Assembly: GCF_041886205.1 (NCBI RefSeq)
Contig: NZ_CP169029.1
Source of the DNA: Escherichia coli
GTDB taxonomy: Bacteria; Pseudomonadota; Gammaproteobacteria; Enterobacterales; Enterobacteriaceae
Direction: 5' to 3' (one strand)
Length of the DNA: 64,000 nucleotides
Shown here in pieces: positions 8,713-57,953 of the stretch. How positions within the stretch are numbered: the first letter of the stretch is position 1; each line of letters starts with the position of its first letter. The notes beneath the pieces were generated by a model, which worked only from the letters and a program-made list of their open reading frames with translations, ran no database searches and was not told where the DNA came from. The translations under genes were made by a program, and so were the position numbers.

Positions 8713-8797
8713 CCAGGCCTGATAAGACGCGTGATGCGTCGTATCAGGCATCGTTCACCATTGCCGGATGCGGCGTTAACGCCTTATCCGGCCTACG
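8713..8797. repeat. BIME: two REP elements between ypfH and ypfN
   Basis: gcctgataagacgcgtgatgcgtcgtatcaggc and gccggatgcggcgttaacgccttatccggcctac, both matching the REP consensus. Confidence 0.8.
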
Positions 8798-32269: not shown

Positions 32270-33446
32270 ATTGCAGACCGCGCTCTTTCAGGCGTTCGAT
32301 ACCCTGAATCTGCAACGGGTAAAAACATTTAGCGTTCCACCGGTGACGCTTTGCGGTCCGGGCGCGGTGAGCAGTTGCGGGCAGCAAGCGCAAACGCGTG
32401 GGCTGAAACATCTGTTCGTGATGGCAGACAGCTTTTTGCATCAGGCGGGGATGACCGCCGGGCTGACGCGTAGCCTGGCCGTTAAAGGCATCGCCATGAC
32501 GCTCTGGCCGTGTCCGGTGGGCGAACCGTGCATTACTGACGTGTGTGCAGCCGTGGCGCAGTTGCGTGAATCAGGCTGTGACGGGGTGATTGCGTTTGGC
32601 GGCGGCTCGGTGCTGGATGCAGCAAAAGCCGTGGCGTTGCTGGTGACGAACCCCGATAGCACGCTGGCGGAAATGTCAGAAACCAGCGTTCTGCAACCGC
32701 GCCTGCCGTTGATTGCCATTCCAACGACCGCCGGAACCGGCTCTGAAACCACCAACGTAACGGTGATTATCGACGCGGTGAGCGGGCGCAAGCAGGTGTT
32801 AGCCCATGCCTCGCTGATGCCGGATGTGGCGATTCTCGACGCCGCATTGACCGAAGGTGTGCCGTCGCATGTCACGGCGATGACCGGTATTGACGCGTTA
32901 ACCCATGCCATTGAAGCGTACAGCGCGCTGAACGCCACACCGTTTACTGACAGTCTGGCGATTGGCGCTATTGCGATGATTGGCAAATCGCTGCCGAAAG
33001 CGGTGGGCTACGGTCATGACCTTGCCGCGCGCGAGAGCATGTTACTGGCTTCATGTATGGCGGGAATGGCGTTTTCCAGTGCGGGGCTTGGGTTGTGCCA
33101 CGCGATGGCGCATCAGCCAGGGGCGGCGCTGCATATTCCACACGGTCTGGCGAACGCCATGTTGCTGCCAACGGTGATGGAATTTAACCGGATGGTTTGT
33201 CGCGAACGGTTTAGTCAGATTGGTCGGGCACTGCGAACTAAAAAATCCGACGATCGTGACGCTATTAACGCGGTAAGTGAGCTGATTGCGGAAGTTGGGA
33301 TTGGTAAACGACTGGGCGATGTTGGCGCGACATCTGCGCATTACGGTGCATGGGCGCAGGCCGCGCAGGAAGATATTTGTCTGCGCAGCAACCCGCGTAC
33401 CGCCAGCCTGGAACAGATTGTCGGACTGTACGCGGCGGCGCAATAA
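32259..33446 (+). CDS. eutG: Alcohol dehydrogenase EutG (iron-containing)
   Basis: 395 aa from MQNELQTALFQAF with GGAGGGG RBS; overlaps eutJ by 11 nt; Fe-ADH family. Confidence 0.9.
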   Translation: MQNELQTALFQAFDTLNLQRVKTFSVPPVTLCGPGAVSSCGQQAQTRGLKHLFVMADSFLHQAGMTAGLTRSLAVKGIAMTLWPCPVGEPCITDVCAAVAQLRESGCDGVIAFGGGSVLDAAKAVALLVTNPDSTLAEMSETSVLQPRLPLIAIPTTAGTGSETTNVTVIIDAVSGRKQVLAHASLMPDVAILDAALTEGVPSHVTAMTGIDALTHAIEAYSALNATPFTDSLAIGAIAMIGKSLPKAVGYGHDLAARESMLLASCMAGMAFSSAGLGLCHAMAHQPGAALHIPHGLANAMLLPTVMEFNRMVCRERFSQIGRALRTKKSDDRDAINAVSELIAEVGIGKRLGDVGATSAHYGAWAQAAQEDICLRSNPRTASLEQIVGLYAAAQ

Positions 33447-33447
33447 A

Positions 33448-33731
<284 letters not shown>

Positions 33732-39894: not shown

Positions 39895-40947
39895 ATGAAA
39901 AAGACCCGTACAGCCAATTTGCACCATCTTTATCATGAACCCTTACCCGAAAACCTGAAGCTCACGCCGAAGGTCGAAGTGGATAATGTTCATCAACGAC
40001 AGACAACGGATGTCTATGAACATGCTTTAACGATTACCGCCTGGCAGCAGATTTACGATCAGCTGCATCCGGGCAAGTTTCATGGTGAATTTACGGAAAT
40101 TCTACTCGATGATATTCAGGTTTTTCGTGAATACACCGGTCTGGCGCTGCGTCAGTCGTGCCTGGTCTGGCCGAACTCGTTCTGGTTTGGCATTCCGGCG
40201 ACGCGCGGTGAGCAGGGATTTATCGGTTCGCAATGTCTGGGAAGCGCGGAAATCGCCACCCGCCCTGGTGGCACTGAATTTGAACTGAGCACGCCGGATG
40301 ATTACACGATCCTGAGCGTGGTGCTTTCTGAAGATGTCATCACCCGGCAGGCTAACTTTTTGCATAACCCGGATCGGGTATTACATATGCTGCGTAGCCA
40401 GTCGGCGCTGGAAGTGAAAGAGCAGCATAAAGCCGCGCTGTGGGGCTTTGTCCAACAGGCGCTGGCGACGTTTTGCGAGAACCCGGAAAATCTCCATCAG
40501 CCTGCAGTGCGAAAAGTGCTGGGGGATAATTTGCTAATGGCGATGGGGGCGATGCTGGAAGACGCGCAACCAATGGTGACGGCGGAAAGCATCAGCCATC
40601 AGAGCTACCGTAGATTACTTTCCCGCGCCCGTGAATATGTGCTGGAAAATATGTCTGAGCCGGTGACGGTGCTGGACTTGTGTAATCAACTGCATGTCAG
40701 TCGCCGCACGCTACAAAACGCGTTTCACGCTATTTTAGGCATTGGCCCAAACGCGTGGCTGAAACGCATTCGCCTGAACGCCGTACGCCGCGAACTGATA
40801 AGCCCGTGGTCGCAAAGCACAACGGTAAAAGACGCCGCCATGCAGTGGGGATTCTGGCATCTGGGGCAATTTGCCACGGATTACCAGCAGCTGTTTGCCG
40901 AGAAGCCGTCGTTGACGTTGCATCAGCGGATGCGGGAATGGGGGTGA
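39895..40947 (+). CDS. eutR: AraC-family transcriptional activator of the eut operon, EutR
   Basis: 350 aa; C-terminal AraC-type HTH; recognised EutR. Confidence 0.92.
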
Positions 40948-45451: not shown

Positions 45452-45488
45452 AAAGGCCAGGCAGTAACATTACTGACTGGCCTTTTTA
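45452..45488 (+). terminator. Rho-independent terminator downstream of yfeX (also abuts yfeW 3' end)
   Basis: aaaggccag...ctggccttt stem followed by TTTTATT. Confidence 0.65.
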
Positions 45489-51060: not shown

Positions 51061-51217
51061 TTCACCTCTGTTTCCTCCCTGCATGTGTGGGGAGGATTTC
51101 GTCTTATTCCCTTTTCAACTTCCAAATCACCAAACGGTATATAAAACCGTTACTCCTTTCACGTCCGTTATAAATATGATGGCTATTAGAAAGTCATTAA
51201 ATTTATAAGGGTGCGCA

Positions 51218-53067: not shown

Positions 53068-53942
53068 TGGCGGAAGTTACCCAATTGAAGCGTTATGACG
53101 CGCGCCCGATTAACTGGGGCAAATGGTTTCTGATTGGCACCGGGATGCTGGTTTCGGCGTTCATCCTGCTGGTGCCGATGATTTACATCTTCGTGCAGGC
53201 ATTCAGCAAGGGGCTGATGCCGGTTTTACAGAATCTGGCCGATCCGGACATGCTGCACGCCATCTGGCTGACGGTGATGATCGCGCTGATTGCCGTACCG
53301 GTAAACCTGGTGTTCGGCATTCTGCTGGCCTGGCTGGTGACGCGCTTTAACTTCCCTGGACGCCAGTTACTGCTGACGCTACTGGACATTCCGTTTGCCG
53401 TATCGCCGGTGGTTGCCGGTCTGGTGTATCTGCTGTTCTACGGCTCTAACGGCCCGCTGGGCGGCTGGCTGGATGAACATAATCTGCAAATTATGTTCTC
53501 CTGGCCCGGAATGGTGCTGGTCACCATCTTTGTGACGTGTCCGTTTGTGGTGCGCGAGCTGGTGCCGGTGATGTTAAGCCAGGGCAGCCAGGAAGACGAA
53601 GCGGCGATTTTGCTTGGCGCGTCTGGCTGGCAGATGTTCCGTCGCGTCACATTGCCGAATATTCGCTGGGCGCTGCTTTATGGCGTGGTGCTGACCAACG
53701 CCCGCGCGATTGGCGAGTTTGGTGCAGTGTCGGTGGTTTCCGGCTCGATTCGCGGCGAAACACTTTCGCTGCCGTTACAGATTGAATTGCTGGAGCAGGA
53801 CTACAACACCGTCGGCTCCTTTACCGCCGCCGCGCTGTTGACGCTGATGGCGATTATCACCCTGTTTTTAAAGAGTATGTTGCAGTGGCGCCTGGAGAAT
53901 CAGGAAAAACGCGCGCAGCAGGAGGAGCATCATGAGCATTGA
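53067..53942 (+). CDS. cysW: Sulfate/thiosulfate ABC transporter permease CysW
   Basis: 291 aa; start overlaps cysU stop by 1 nt. Confidence 0.92.
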
Positions 53943-55029
53943 GATTGCCAATATCAAGAAGTCTTTTGGTCGCACCCAGGTGCTGAATGATATCTCACTG
54001 GATATTCCTTCTGGTCAGATGGTCGCGCTGCTGGGGCCGTCCGGTTCCGGAAAAACCACGCTGCTGCGCATTATTGCCGGGCTGGAGCATCAAACCAGCG
54101 GGCATATTCGCTTCCACGGTACCGACGTGAGCCGCCTGCACGCACGCGATCGTAAAGTCGGTTTCGTGTTCCAGCATTACGCGCTGTTCCGTCATATGAC
54201 GGTGTTCGACAATATCGCTTTTGGCCTGACGGTGCTGCCACGTCGCGAGCGCCCGAATGCCGCAGCCATCAAAGCGAAAGTGACAAAATTGCTGGAGATG
54301 GTCCAGCTTGCCCATCTGGCGGATCGTTATCCGGCACAGCTTTCCGGCGGCCAGAAACAGCGCGTGGCGCTGGCGCGCGCGCTGGCTGTTGAACCGCAAA
54401 TTCTCCTGCTTGATGAACCGTTTGGCGCGCTGGATGCGCAGGTGCGTAAAGAGCTGCGTCGCTGGCTGCGTCAACTGCATGAAGAGCTGAAATTCACCAG
54501 CGTGTTCGTGACCCACGACCAGGAAGAAGCGACCGAAGTAGCTGATCGTGTAGTGGTGATGAGCCAGGGCAATATCGAGCAGGCTGATGCGCCGGACCAG
54601 GTATGGCGCGAACCAGCGACCCGATTTGTGCTCGAATTTATGGGCGAAGTGAACCGCCTGCAGGGAACCATTCGCGGCGGGCAGTTCCATGTTGGCGCAC
54701 ATCGCTGGCCGCTGGGGTATACGCCTGCGTATCAGGGGCCGGTGGATCTCTTCCTGCGCCCGTGGGAAGTGGATATCAGCCGCCGTACCAGTCTCGATTC
54801 GCCGCTGCCGGTACAGGTACTGGAAGCCAGCCCGAAAGGTCATTACACCCAATTAGTCGTGCAGCCGCTGGGGTGGTACAACGAACCGCTGACGGTTGTG
54901 ATGCATGGCGACGATGCCCCGCAGCGTGGCGAGCGTTTATTCGTTGGTCTGCAACATGCGCGGCTGTATAACGGCGACGAGCGTATCGAAACCCGCGATG
55001 AGGAACTTGCTCTCGCACAAAGCGCCTGA
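53932..55029 (+). CDS. cysA: Sulfate/thiosulfate ABC transporter ATP-binding protein CysA
   Basis: 365 aa; Walker [13 protein letters not shown] signature LSGGQKQR; overlaps cysW by 11 nt. Confidence 0.93.
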
Positions 55030-55050
55030 TAGGTTGAGTGAATGTTAAAC

Positions 55051-55086
55051 GCCCGGAGGCGCTTCCCGCGATCCGGGCTTTTTAAT
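55051..55086 (+). terminator. Terminator-like hairpin between cysA and cysM
   Basis: gcccgga-(14-nt loop)-tccgggc followed by TTTTTAAT. Confidence 0.5.
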
Positions 55087-55100
55087 GGCAAGGTTTGTAA

Positions 55101-55140
55101 CCTGTAGACCTGATAAGACGCGCAAGCGTCGCATCAGGCA
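55101..55140. repeat. REP element between cysA and cysM
   Basis: cctgtagacctgataagacgcgcaagcgtcgcatcaggca, REP-like palindrome. Confidence 0.7.
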
Positions 55141-55162
55141 ACACCACGTATGGATAGAGATC

Positions 55163-56074
55163 GTGAGTACATTAGAACAAACAATAGGCAATACGCCTCT
55201 GGTAAAGTTGCAGCGAATGGGGCCGAATAACGGCAGTGAAGTGTGGTTGAAACTGGAAGGCAATAACCCGGCAGGTTCGGTGAAAGATCGTGCGGCACTT
55301 TCGATGATCGTCGAGGCGGAAAAGCGCGGGGAAATTAAACCGGGTAATGTGTTAATCGAAGCCACCAGTGGTAACACCGGCATTGCGCTGGCAATGATTG
55401 CCGCGCTTAAAGGCTATCGCATGAAATTGCTGATGCCCGACAACATGAGCCAGGAACGCCGTGCGGCGATGCGTGCTTATGGTGCGGAACTGATTCTTGT
55501 CACCAAAGAGCAGGGCATGGAAGGTGCGCGCGATCTGGCGCTGGAGATGGCGAATCGTGGTGAAGGAAAGCTGCTCGATCAGTTCAATAATCCCGATAAC
55601 CCTTACGCCCATTACACCACCACCGGGCCGGAAATCTGGCAGCAGACTGGCGGGCGCATTACCCATTTTGTCTCCAGCATGGGAACAACCGGCACTATCA
55701 CCGGCGTGTCACGCTTTATGCGCGAACAATCCAAACCGGTGACCATTGTTGGCCTGCAGCCGGAAGAAGGCAGCAGTATTCCGGGCATTCGCCGCTGGCC
55801 TGCGGAATATCTGCCGGGGATTTTCAATGCTTCTCTGGTGGATGAGGTGCTGGATATTCATCAGCGCGATGCGGAAAACACCATGCGCGAACTGGCTGTG
55901 CGGGAAGGAATATTCTGTGGCGTCAGCTCCGGCGGCGCGGTTGCCGGAGCACTGCGGGTGGCAAAAGCTAACCCTGGTGCGGTGGTGGTAGCGATCATCT
56001 GCGATCGTGGCGATCGCTACCTTTCCACCGGGGTGTTTGGGGAAGAGCATTTTAGTCAGGGGGCGGGGATTTAA
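55163..56074 (+). CDS. cysM: Cysteine synthase B (O-acetylserine sulfhydrylase B)
   Basis: 303 aa from the GTG at 55163 (annotated N-terminus MSTLEQTIGNTPLVKL); PLP-lysine motif SVKDRAA; ORF track extends upstream into the REP region. Confidence 0.9.
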   Translation: MSTLEQTIGNTPLVKLQRMGPNNGSEVWLKLEGNNPAGSVKDRAALSMIVEAEKRGEIKPGNVLIEATSGNTGIALAMIAALKGYRMKLLMPDNMSQERRAAMRAYGAELILVTKEQGMEGARDLALEMANRGEGKLLDQFNNPDNPYAHYTTTGPEIWQQTGGRITHFVSSMGTTGTITGVSRFMREQSKPVTIVGLQPEEGSSIPGIRRWPAEYLPGIFNASLVDEVLDIHQRDAENTMRELAVREGIFCGVSSGGAVAGALRVAKANPGAVVVAIICDRGDRYLSTGVFGEEHFSQGAGI

Positions 56075-56076
56075 GA

Positions 56077-56445
56077 TTATTGCGCAGGCACTGTTTTATC
56101 CGTCTGCGCAATTAACGCATGTAAAAAAAGCTGTGCATTCTCATCGCTCTTACCGGGCATCTTCACGATATACGGCTTCCCGGTAATCGATGATGACGAA
56201 GCAACCTTGTCAATAAACTGCTCGGCAGTGTCAATGCGGTTACGGGTATTGCTGAGCTTCAGACGCAGGTGGGAAACCGCTTCATCGCAGGTATGTTCAT
56301 CGCCGTTGCGCACAAATATCAAATCCTTTTTCTGTGCTAATCCCTCCAGCATGGCGTTGATGCGGGCTTCTTCATGGGCAGTTAACTTCGCGTAAGCGGG
56401 GAGTGTCATTAGTAGTGTAATGACCAGACAAATGATTTTCTTCAT
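56077..56445 (-). CDS. yfeK: Uncharacterised secreted protein YfeK (DUF5329-like)
   Basis: 122 aa with signal peptide [19 protein letters not shown]; convergent with cysM, stops 2 bp apart. Confidence 0.8.
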
Positions 56446-56470
56446 TGAATTACCTTATCCTTGTTTTGTG

Positions 56471-56536
<66 letters not shown>

Positions 56537-56549
56537 GAGAAAAAATTAA

Positions 56550-57401
56550 ATGAGTAGTTTGTTGTTGTTTAACGATAAGAGCAGGGCACTGCAGGCGGAT
56601 ATCGTCGCCGTGCAGTCGCAGGTAGTGTACGGCAGCGTAGGCAACAGCATTGCCGTGCCTGCTATCAAACAGAACGGCCTGAATGTCTTTGCCGTGCCGA
56701 CGGTATTGCTGAGCAATACGCCGCATTATGACACTTTCTACGGTGGTGCGATTCCGGATGAATGGTTTAGCGGCTATTTGCGTGCACTTCAGGAGCGTGA
56801 TGCGCTGCGCCAACTTCGTGCTGTAACCACGGGCTATATGGGAACGGCATCGCAAATCAAAATCCTTGCCGAGTGGCTGACTGCGCTACGCAAAGACCAT
56901 CCTGACCTATTGATCATGGTCGATCCGGTGATTGGCGATATTGATAGCGGAATTTATGTCAAACCTGACCTTCCCGAGGCGTATCGACAATATTTACTGC
57001 CGCTGGCGCAGGGAATTACCCCCAATATCTTTGAGCTGGAAATCCTGACCGGTAAAAATTGCCGCGATCTCGACAGTGCCATTGCTGCCGCAAAAAGTCT
57101 GCTTTCAGACACATTAAAATGGGTGGTGATTACCAGCGCCTCCGGTAATGAAGAAAATCAGGAGATGCAGGTTGTGGTGGTCACTGCCGACAGCGTGAAT
57201 GTCATTTCCCATTCACGGGTAAAAACCGACCTGAAAGGGACTGGCGACCTGTTTTGTGCTCAGCTTATCAGTGGTTTGCTGAAAGGGAAGGCATTAAACG
57301 ATGCGGTGCACCGCGCGGGGTTGCGCGTACTGGAAGTGATGCGCTACACCCAGCAGCATGAGAGCGATGAATTGATTTTGCCGCTGCTGGCGGAAGCATA
57401 A
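56550..57401 (+). CDS. pdxK: Pyridoxal/pyridoxine/pyridoxamine kinase
   Basis: 283 aa ribokinase-fold protein; recognised PdxK. Confidence 0.92.
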
Positions 57402-57430
57402 AAAAATGGCGCCGATGGGCGCCATTTTTC
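57400..57430. terminator. Bidirectional rho-independent terminator (pdxK / crr)
   Basis: AAAAAAatggcgcc-gatg-ggcgccatTTTTT perfect stem flanked by A-run and T-run. Confidence 0.85.
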
Positions 57431-57443
57431 ACTGCGGCAAGAA

Positions 57444-57953
57444 TTACTTCTTGATGCGGATAACCGGGGTTTCACCCACAGTCACGCTACCGGACAGTTT
57501 GATCAGTTCTTTGATTTCGTCCATGTTGGAGATAACAACCGGAGTCAGGGTAGACTTGGCTTTCTCTTCCAGCAGCGGCAGATCAAATTCAATGACAGTA
57601 TCGCCAACTTTCACGCGCTGACCTTCTTCAGCAATACGCTTGAAGCCTTCGCCTTTCAGTTCAACGGTGTCGATACCGAAGTGGACGAACAGTTCAACGC
57701 CGCTATCAGATTCGATAGAGAATGCGTGGTTGGTTTCAAAGATTTTACCAATGGTGCCGTCTACAGGCGCGACCATTTTGTTACCCGTTGGTTTGATAGC
57801 AATACCATCACCAACGATTTTTTCCGCAAAAACGACATCCGGCACGTCTTCGATATTGACGATCTCGCCAGAGAGCGGAGCAATGATCTCAATAGTTCCG
57901 GTATCCTTCTTGTCGTCGGAAACCAGAGATTTCAGTTTATCGAACAAACCCAT
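57444..57953 (-). CDS. crr: PTS glucose-specific EIIA component
   Basis: 169 aa; recognised EIIA-Glc. Confidence 0.95.

Follow-up and report, generated by a model that had tools for sequence, protein, structure and literature searches.

The contiguous cysM–yfeK junction is the majority arrangement in Escherichia coli and is probably the unoccupied form of an accessory-gene insertion site

When two convergent genes end 2 bp apart in one Escherichia coli and have a third gene between them in K-12, which arrangement is the exception, and was a gene lost or gained? This question is raised by the cysM–yfeK junction in the 64,000 nucleotides of E. coli DNA (contig NZ_CP169029.1) that were analysed here and that we refer to, at their full length, as the window. 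The original prediction was that the two stop codons lie 2 bp apart with no terminator between them, that yfeS, which stands between yfeK and cysM in K-12, is missing through a small, strain-specific indel, and that the two convergent transcripts could read into each other. Direct reading and the list of open reading frames bear out the spacing to the letter, with the cysM stop TAA at 56072–56074, the letters GA at 56075–56076 and the yfeK stop at 56077–56079. The sequence near 56,060–56,090 reads ...GGG GCG GGG ATT TAA GA TTA TTG CGC AGG..., in which the yfeK stop appears on the plus strand as TTA (reverse complement, TAA). The gene order is cysA then cysM, convergent with yfeK, which is in turn divergent from pdxK, and the features of the region are as follows.

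55163–56074, plus strand: cysM (cysteine synthase B), 303 aa, GTG start, stop TAA
56075–56076, no strand: spacer GA between the convergent stops, the probable empty insertion site, where K-12-type strains have a 959/975-bp cassette of BIME and yfeS
56077–56445, minus strand: yfeK, encoding a 122-aa DUF5329 protein that ends ...KTVPAQ
56079–56112, no strand: inverted repeat or stem-loop, ATTGCGCAGGC-N12-GTCTGCGCAAT, whose 5' arm is formed by the last yfeK codons and the stop
56479–56506, minus strand: sigma-E-type promoter motif GAAACTT-N16-TCAAA, a pattern match in the yfeK–pdxK intergenic region
56550–57401, plus strand: pdxK, the divergent neighbour of yfeK (tblastn, 98.9% over 283 aa, and RefSeq annotation)

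The window is 96.5–98.8% identical to K-12, and the K-12 proteins CysA, CysM, YfeK, PdxK and Crr all find matches in it at 95–100% amino acid identity (tblastn). For CysM, the final gene product of the cysPUWAM cluster, residues 1–303 align at 55163–56071 with 98.7% identity (tblastn), and RefSeq records that match the window at 99.9–100% annotate cysM at the identical position. The YfeK of the window contains the DUF5329 domain (PF17263, E=2e-31, 108.6 bits against a cut-off of 27), and its N-terminus looks like a signal peptide.

The K-12 record bears out this position of yfeS: its order is cysM, 188 bp, yfeS (735 bp, minus strand), 32 bp, yfeK (375 bp) and pdxK. Relative to the window, alignment gives a surplus of 959 bp in K-12 and 975 bp in BL21. 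The first part of this cassette, right behind the cysM stop, is a BIME made up of two REP elements. Next come yfeS and a short spacer containing the ribosome-binding site GGAGGT, and the end of yfeK is altered as well. That yfeS is missing from the window is confirmed, as K-12 YfeS gives no tblastn match at E<=1e-3 anywhere in the 64 kb and there are only 2 bp between the stops. Directly 3' of the cysM stop the BIME/REP pair is likewise absent, the entire 188-bp REP-containing spacer being missing in the alignment. The C-terminus of YfeK, which the original prediction had proposed for comparison, differs as well: it is ...TVPAQ here and ...TVPAEGN in K-12, the gene ending GCG CAA TAA in the window and GCG GAA GGA AAT TAA with the cassette, and the protein having 122 aa in the window and 124 aa where it accompanies yfeS. 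All three marks of the yfeS-bearing allele (the yfeS reading frame, the BIME/REP pair and a 124-aa YfeK ending ...PAEGN) are thus lacking from the window, which carries both marks of the yfeS-less allele, namely the contiguous 2-bp junction and a 122-aa YfeK ending ...PAQ with a full 11-bp stem.

What did not hold is the view of this difference as specific to one strain. A 111-bp probe across the window junction found the contiguous, yfeS-less arrangement in 4,038 of the 5,426 complete E. coli genomes (74%), and the yfeS cassette, counted when at least 80% of the query was covered, was found in 1,381 (25%). Together the two counts account for 5,419 genomes, and the leftover oddities that were inspected proved to be cassette alleles, one of them with IS1397 in the BIME. 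Genomes free of the cassette match its REP part alone, at many places, which shows that yfeS has not been relocated in them. In an evenly spread sample the contiguous form occurred in O157:H7, SF-088 and many human and animal isolates, and yfeS was present in K-12, BL21, NCTC122 and others; HS also carries the cassette. An assembly artefact is ruled out by a junction common to thousands of complete genomes. The yfeS-less junction is the majority, already annotated E. coli arrangement.

The haplotype around the junction is itself rare, as at least 99% identity over positions 40000–64000 (24 kb) was reached in 9 of 5,426 genomes, the best match being strain wlxctx60 (100.0%). A T7 run in the window's yfeK (A7 on the plus strand) places Leu instead of Pro in the YfeK segment ...NAQLFLH.... 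In E. coli O157:H7 FRIK2455 (locus L028, 1178–1545), yfeK is annotated as a frameshifted pseudogene; this allele has lost 1 bp in an A-run about 50 bp from the 3' end, a run of which the window has the longest version. The cassette, too, has been disturbed in places: in E. coli HYM1 (locus L043, 4752–6101), the one case examined among about 50 genomes in which a 1.8-kb probe failed to align as a single place, an IS1397-family element lies within the BIME, between cysM and yfeS.

To which side the change is to be assigned depends on relatives outside E. coli. A YfeK search of genome contigs yielded 22 loci, to which Salmonella and Klebsiella were added by protein search and contig look-ups; in this sample, in which E. 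fergusonii was not found, yfeS was absent from all of the outgroups examined other than Pseudocitrobacter. Two divergent Escherichia species (about 90% nucleotide identity), represented by Escherichia sp. E1V33 and by SCPM-O-B-8794, have no yfeS. The latter, which is labelled E. coli, has the same TAA-GA-TTA junction as the window. In Escherichia sp. E1V33 (locus L004, 1400–1430) there is no spacer: the yfeK reading frame extends into the cysM 3' end, and the two genes overlap by a few codons. This is a third junction type, shared with Pseudocitrobacter cyperus (P0099), in which YfeK ends ...TVPSNP and the cysM stop is TGA. In UBA5654, Superficieibacter sp., C. amalonaticus and Entomohabitans, 7–84 bp separate the last aligned YfeK codon from the last cysM codon. 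Other lineages carry cargo of their own at the site.

Salmonella, locus L038, 4376–4726: a 116-aa open reading frame with no Pfam hit
Klebsiella, locus L039, 4398–4793: a 131-aa SnoaL-like gene that overlaps cysM by 4 bp
E. albertii, locus L011, 4313–6152: a 1.84-kb insert of 34% GC with two low-GC open reading frames of 280 and 175 aa
C. sedlakii, locus L013, 4358–8185: a 3.8-kb insert with two open reading frames (628 and 654 aa), TPR repeats occurring in one of them
S. electus, locus L009, 4367–4894: a 0.53-kb segment

The composition and relatives of yfeS also bear on its origin. Its GC content is 39.2% (GC3 36.7%); cysM has 56.5% and the window 53.2%. The 244-aa YfeS of K-12 is annotated as a 'WGR domain-containing protein'; WGR is the sole Pfam domain, the only PDB match (2ra8) is through this N-terminal domain, and PADLOC returned zero hits to a known defence protein. 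Among its homologs, identity falls from at least 89% to at most 65% outside Escherichia and Pseudocitrobacter, and the distant homologs with a source name come from Paenibacillus, Dysgonomonas, Lysinibacillus, Clostridium and Bacteroidota, all of them Firmicutes or Bacteroidota. The single close variant (89%) that was looked up by contig lies in the same ptsHI-crr-pdxK-yfeK context.

Outside Escherichia the yfeS cassette occurs in one genus, Pseudocitrobacter, where its junctions are the same as in Escherichia. Compared with K-12, nucleotide identity is 95.9% in yfeS, 89.6% in cysM, 85.5% in yfeK and 68.6% in pdxK; as yfeS is closer between the genera than the flanking genes are, recent horizontal exchange is indicated. 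The resemblance extends upstream, where cysW, cysA and cysM of Pseudocitrobacter (loci L006, L007 and L041 against window 53100–57953) are 89–97% identical to the window at the nucleotide level, compared with 89–96% for other Escherichia species and 82–89% for Salmonella, Klebsiella and Citrobacter. On the other side, pdxK (68%) and crr (90%) are as far apart as is usual between genera, the change from one level to the other occurring within yfeK. The simplest reading is that the cys segment was exchanged by recombination between Escherichia and Pseudocitrobacter, one breakpoint lying within yfeK. Pseudocitrobacter was dropped as an independent outgroup, its cys region being Escherichia-like. 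Each of three junction types is present in both genera (...PAQ with 2 bp, ...PSNP overlapping cysM, and ...PAEGN with yfeS), and P. faecalis has the empty junction as in the window.

The edges of the cassette are less tidy than its distribution. It is flanked by an 8-bp direct repeat, GGATTAAT, and the flanks share GATTA/GGATTAAT; relative to the empty allele there is an extra G at the left junction, and a 6-bp insertion with one substitution at the right. A clean insertion signature was sought and rejected, as a simple duplication of the target site does not give the observed sequences, and a simple deletion between the repeats does not give them either. Import of a donor tract together with the cassette was likewise rejected: in a comparison of yfeK variable sites among six empty and four filled E. 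coli alleles plus outgroups, the filled alleles formed no distinct haplotype outside the last few yfeK codons. The two cassette types (959 and 975 bp) are about 5% apart and occur on different yfeK backgrounds within E. coli.

Taking these observations together, we consider it probable (at roughly 0.85) that the window has a small insertion site for accessory genes in its unoccupied, ancestral-type form. On this account the 959- or 975-bp cassette present in about one quarter of E. coli genomes, among them K-12, BL21 and HS, would have entered precisely here; the polarity would be an insertion in K-12-type lineages, not a deletion in the window lineage, and the cassette would have spread by homologous recombination through the conserved flanks. 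A gain in K-12-type strains is favoured because the outgroups are without yfeS, because yfeS is low in GC and has no close relatives, and because it is so similar across genera. Of the indel in the original prediction, the 959-bp difference from K-12 stands, and a deletion here is unlikely given the low GC of yfeS and its absence from outgroups other than Pseudocitrobacter. The non-clean junctions count against an insertion, as does the GGATTAAT repeat, which could equally mediate a deletion. Accessory-gene deletion is frequent in E. coli, and the opposite history would be that yfeS is ancestral here and was lost from the window strain or lineage by recombination between the GGATTAAT copies, in a small deletion that also trimmed the C-terminus of YfeK, which is two residues shorter in the window. 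However, recombination between these repeats predicts TAAGGATTAATTTCCTTCCGCAGG, and TAAGATTATTGCGCAGG is observed. Such a loss also sits badly with the spread of the empty junction, which P. faecalis, one divergent Escherichia species and 74% of the E. coli genomes all have, and with a gene that is compositionally foreign, has no close enterobacterial relatives and occurs in no outgroup outside Pseudocitrobacter. We regard this history as quite unlikely and largely refuted; the difference is most likely not a deletion in the window strain.

The sharing of all three junction types between Escherichia and Pseudocitrobacter, and the 5% divergence of the two cassette types on different E. coli yfeK backgrounds, could also be taken to mean that the two alleles, empty and filled, have been maintained by selection as an old polymorphism in both genera, neither being simply ancestral; one example would be a trade-off between YfeS under envelope stress and a tight cysM/yfeK junction. 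Long co-divergence, however, is not what the identities suggest: yfeS at 95.9% between genera, against flanks at 85–90%, fits recent exchange, and an Escherichia-like cysW-cysA-cysM stretch (89–97%) beside pdxK at 68% and crr at 90%, which are not Escherichia-like, points to recombinational import. We consider an old balanced polymorphism highly improbable. A wider interpretation, which we entertain only tentatively and think rather unlikely as a whole, would join three elements. The site would be a recurrent insertion hotspot in Enterobacteriaceae, with at least six cargoes (yfeS and those of E. albertii, C. sedlakii, S. electus, Salmonella and Klebsiella); its alleles, including the yfeS cassette, would have moved between genera on an Escherichia-like tract from cysW through cysA and cysM to the 3' part of yfeK; and the 11-bp stem of the empty allele would be a coding-embedded, bidirectional 3'-end element for both mRNAs, relaxed in cassette alleles so as to let yfeK–yfeS co-transcription through.

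The insertion of a cassette at this point would also alter a transcription unit. The gene yfeK is among listed sigma-E promoters (PMC3326320), in K-12 yfeKS has been considered one unit of the sigma-E regulon (PMC2685091), and sigma-E dependence of yfeK/yfeS in K-12 is also supported by PMC6850105. The window retains the putative sigma-E motif, and the unit there would be yfeK alone. Where the cassette is present, yfeS would lie on the sigma-E-driven yfeK transcript (yfeKS), and where it is absent yfeK would be monocistronic.

A junction of 2 bp leaves the question of how the two transcripts end. As originally predicted, no terminator was called between the stops: a consensus scan for sites resembling intrinsic terminators gave none at the junction or close to it. 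The stem-loop at 56079–56112 folds with 11 bp on the plus strand, in the sense of cysM (-16.3 kcal/mol, z=-2.83), and with 9 bp on the minus strand, in the sense of yfeK (-13.5 kcal/mol, z=-2.95). It has the GC-rich stem of at least 5 bp that is expected of an intrinsic terminator; the short loop (about 3–8 nt) and adjacent U-tract are lacking, the loops being 12 nt (plus) and 16 nt (minus) and the tails, UUAACGCAUG (plus) and AAUCUUAAAUCC (minus), being without a U-tract. Given the long loop and the lack of a U-tract, the stem-loop fails the definition of a Rho-independent terminator. No Rfam family matches positions 55800–56700 even at E<=1, and there is no tRNA in the 64-kb window.

The full stem is nevertheless kept in eight of the nine yfeS-less alleles compared, the exception being the overlapped junction of Escherichia sp. 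E1V33. It is identical in O157:H7, SF-088, EC0585, TUM18781 and P. faecalis, and in one divergent Escherichia, where an A has changed to G, the pairing is kept as G-U. In all five of the cassette-bearing alleles the stem is 7 bp (-9.5 kcal/mol), a shortening that results from the Q-to-E codon change and the 6-bp insertion. Judged from folding and position, the stem-loop may stabilise or help to form the 3' ends; alternatively, Rho may act past each reading frame. Both mRNAs would then end at or just past the 11-bp stem-loop, or be ended by Rho once translation stops, and either kind of end would leave a short antisense overlap. Some overlap of the cysM and yfeK 3' ends is plausible, and would be unremarkable, being of a kind usual for convergent bacterial genes.

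Several other differences from K-12 were seen along the window, where presence/absence differences in small repeat elements are frequent. The eutB–eutA region is uninterrupted at window 36389, and the K-12 records (loci L026/L027) have there a 6.77-kb block of the CPZ-55 prophage (intZ, yffL–yffS), which interrupts the eut operon. K-12 alone has a 152-bp BIME, of the same type as that in the yfeS cassette, in the pbp4b–yfeX spacer (window 45454–45483), and a 142-bp segment in the cysP–ucpA spacer (window 51102–51105). Rfam matches to the REP-type naRNA4 (CssrE) occur in the window only at 8716–8793 and 33501–33682. The second of these belongs to a REP/BIME region (33445–33682) with two tandem copies, at 33501–33582 and 33601–33682, and an overlap of about 100 bp between BLAST alignments to K-12 near this region suggests a difference in the copy number of a unit of about 100 bp. 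Inside the cys operon, the cysA–cysM spacer (55030–55162) contains two elements in succession: CCCGGAGGCGCTTCCCGCGATCCGGGCTTTTT, a hairpin that resembles a terminator and has a T-run, and GCCTGATAAGACGCGCAAGCGTCGCATCAGGC, a REP-like palindrome; the consensus scan probably missed the hairpin owing to the loop limit of the scan.

In summary, K-12 is not the default gene map of E. coli at this locus. Its yfeS is an accessory gene present in about 25% of complete genomes, the absence of yfeS from the window is the norm and not an event in the strain, and for most E. coli the sigma-E unit known from K-12 as 'yfeKS' reduces to yfeK. The site offers a tidy natural example of neutral cargo gathering between convergent genes, and its empty allele one of a 2-bp tail-to-tail pair whose 3'-end formation must occur inside coding sequence. 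It is mildly notable, in addition, that the cargo varies by enterobacterial lineage and that Escherichia and Pseudocitrobacter seem to have exchanged alleles. Beyond this bookkeeping the consequences are few, as the arrangement is ordinary and already annotated.

Three known systems provide the closest comparisons. The junction of O157:H7 and most RefSeq E. coli resembles that of the window in gene order, in the 2-bp spacing, in the 122-aa YfeK ending ...PAQ and in the 11-bp stem-loop, and differs from it in point differences only, such as the T7 run, which is unique to the window. The yfeKS locus of K-12 and BL21 has the same flanking genes, the same sigma-E-type promoter motif and the same CysM C-terminus (...FGEEHFSQGAGI before the stop), but differs in its BIME, in yfeS and in two additional yfeK codons, and has the stem at the yfeK end weakened to 7 bp. 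Bidirectional intrinsic terminators can serve convergent bacterial genes, and they share with the element at 56079–56112 a single GC-containing palindrome at convergent gene ends that is foldable on both transcripts; unlike them, however, this element has a loop of 12–16 nt instead of 3–8 nt, has no U-tract, and is embedded in the yfeK coding sequence.
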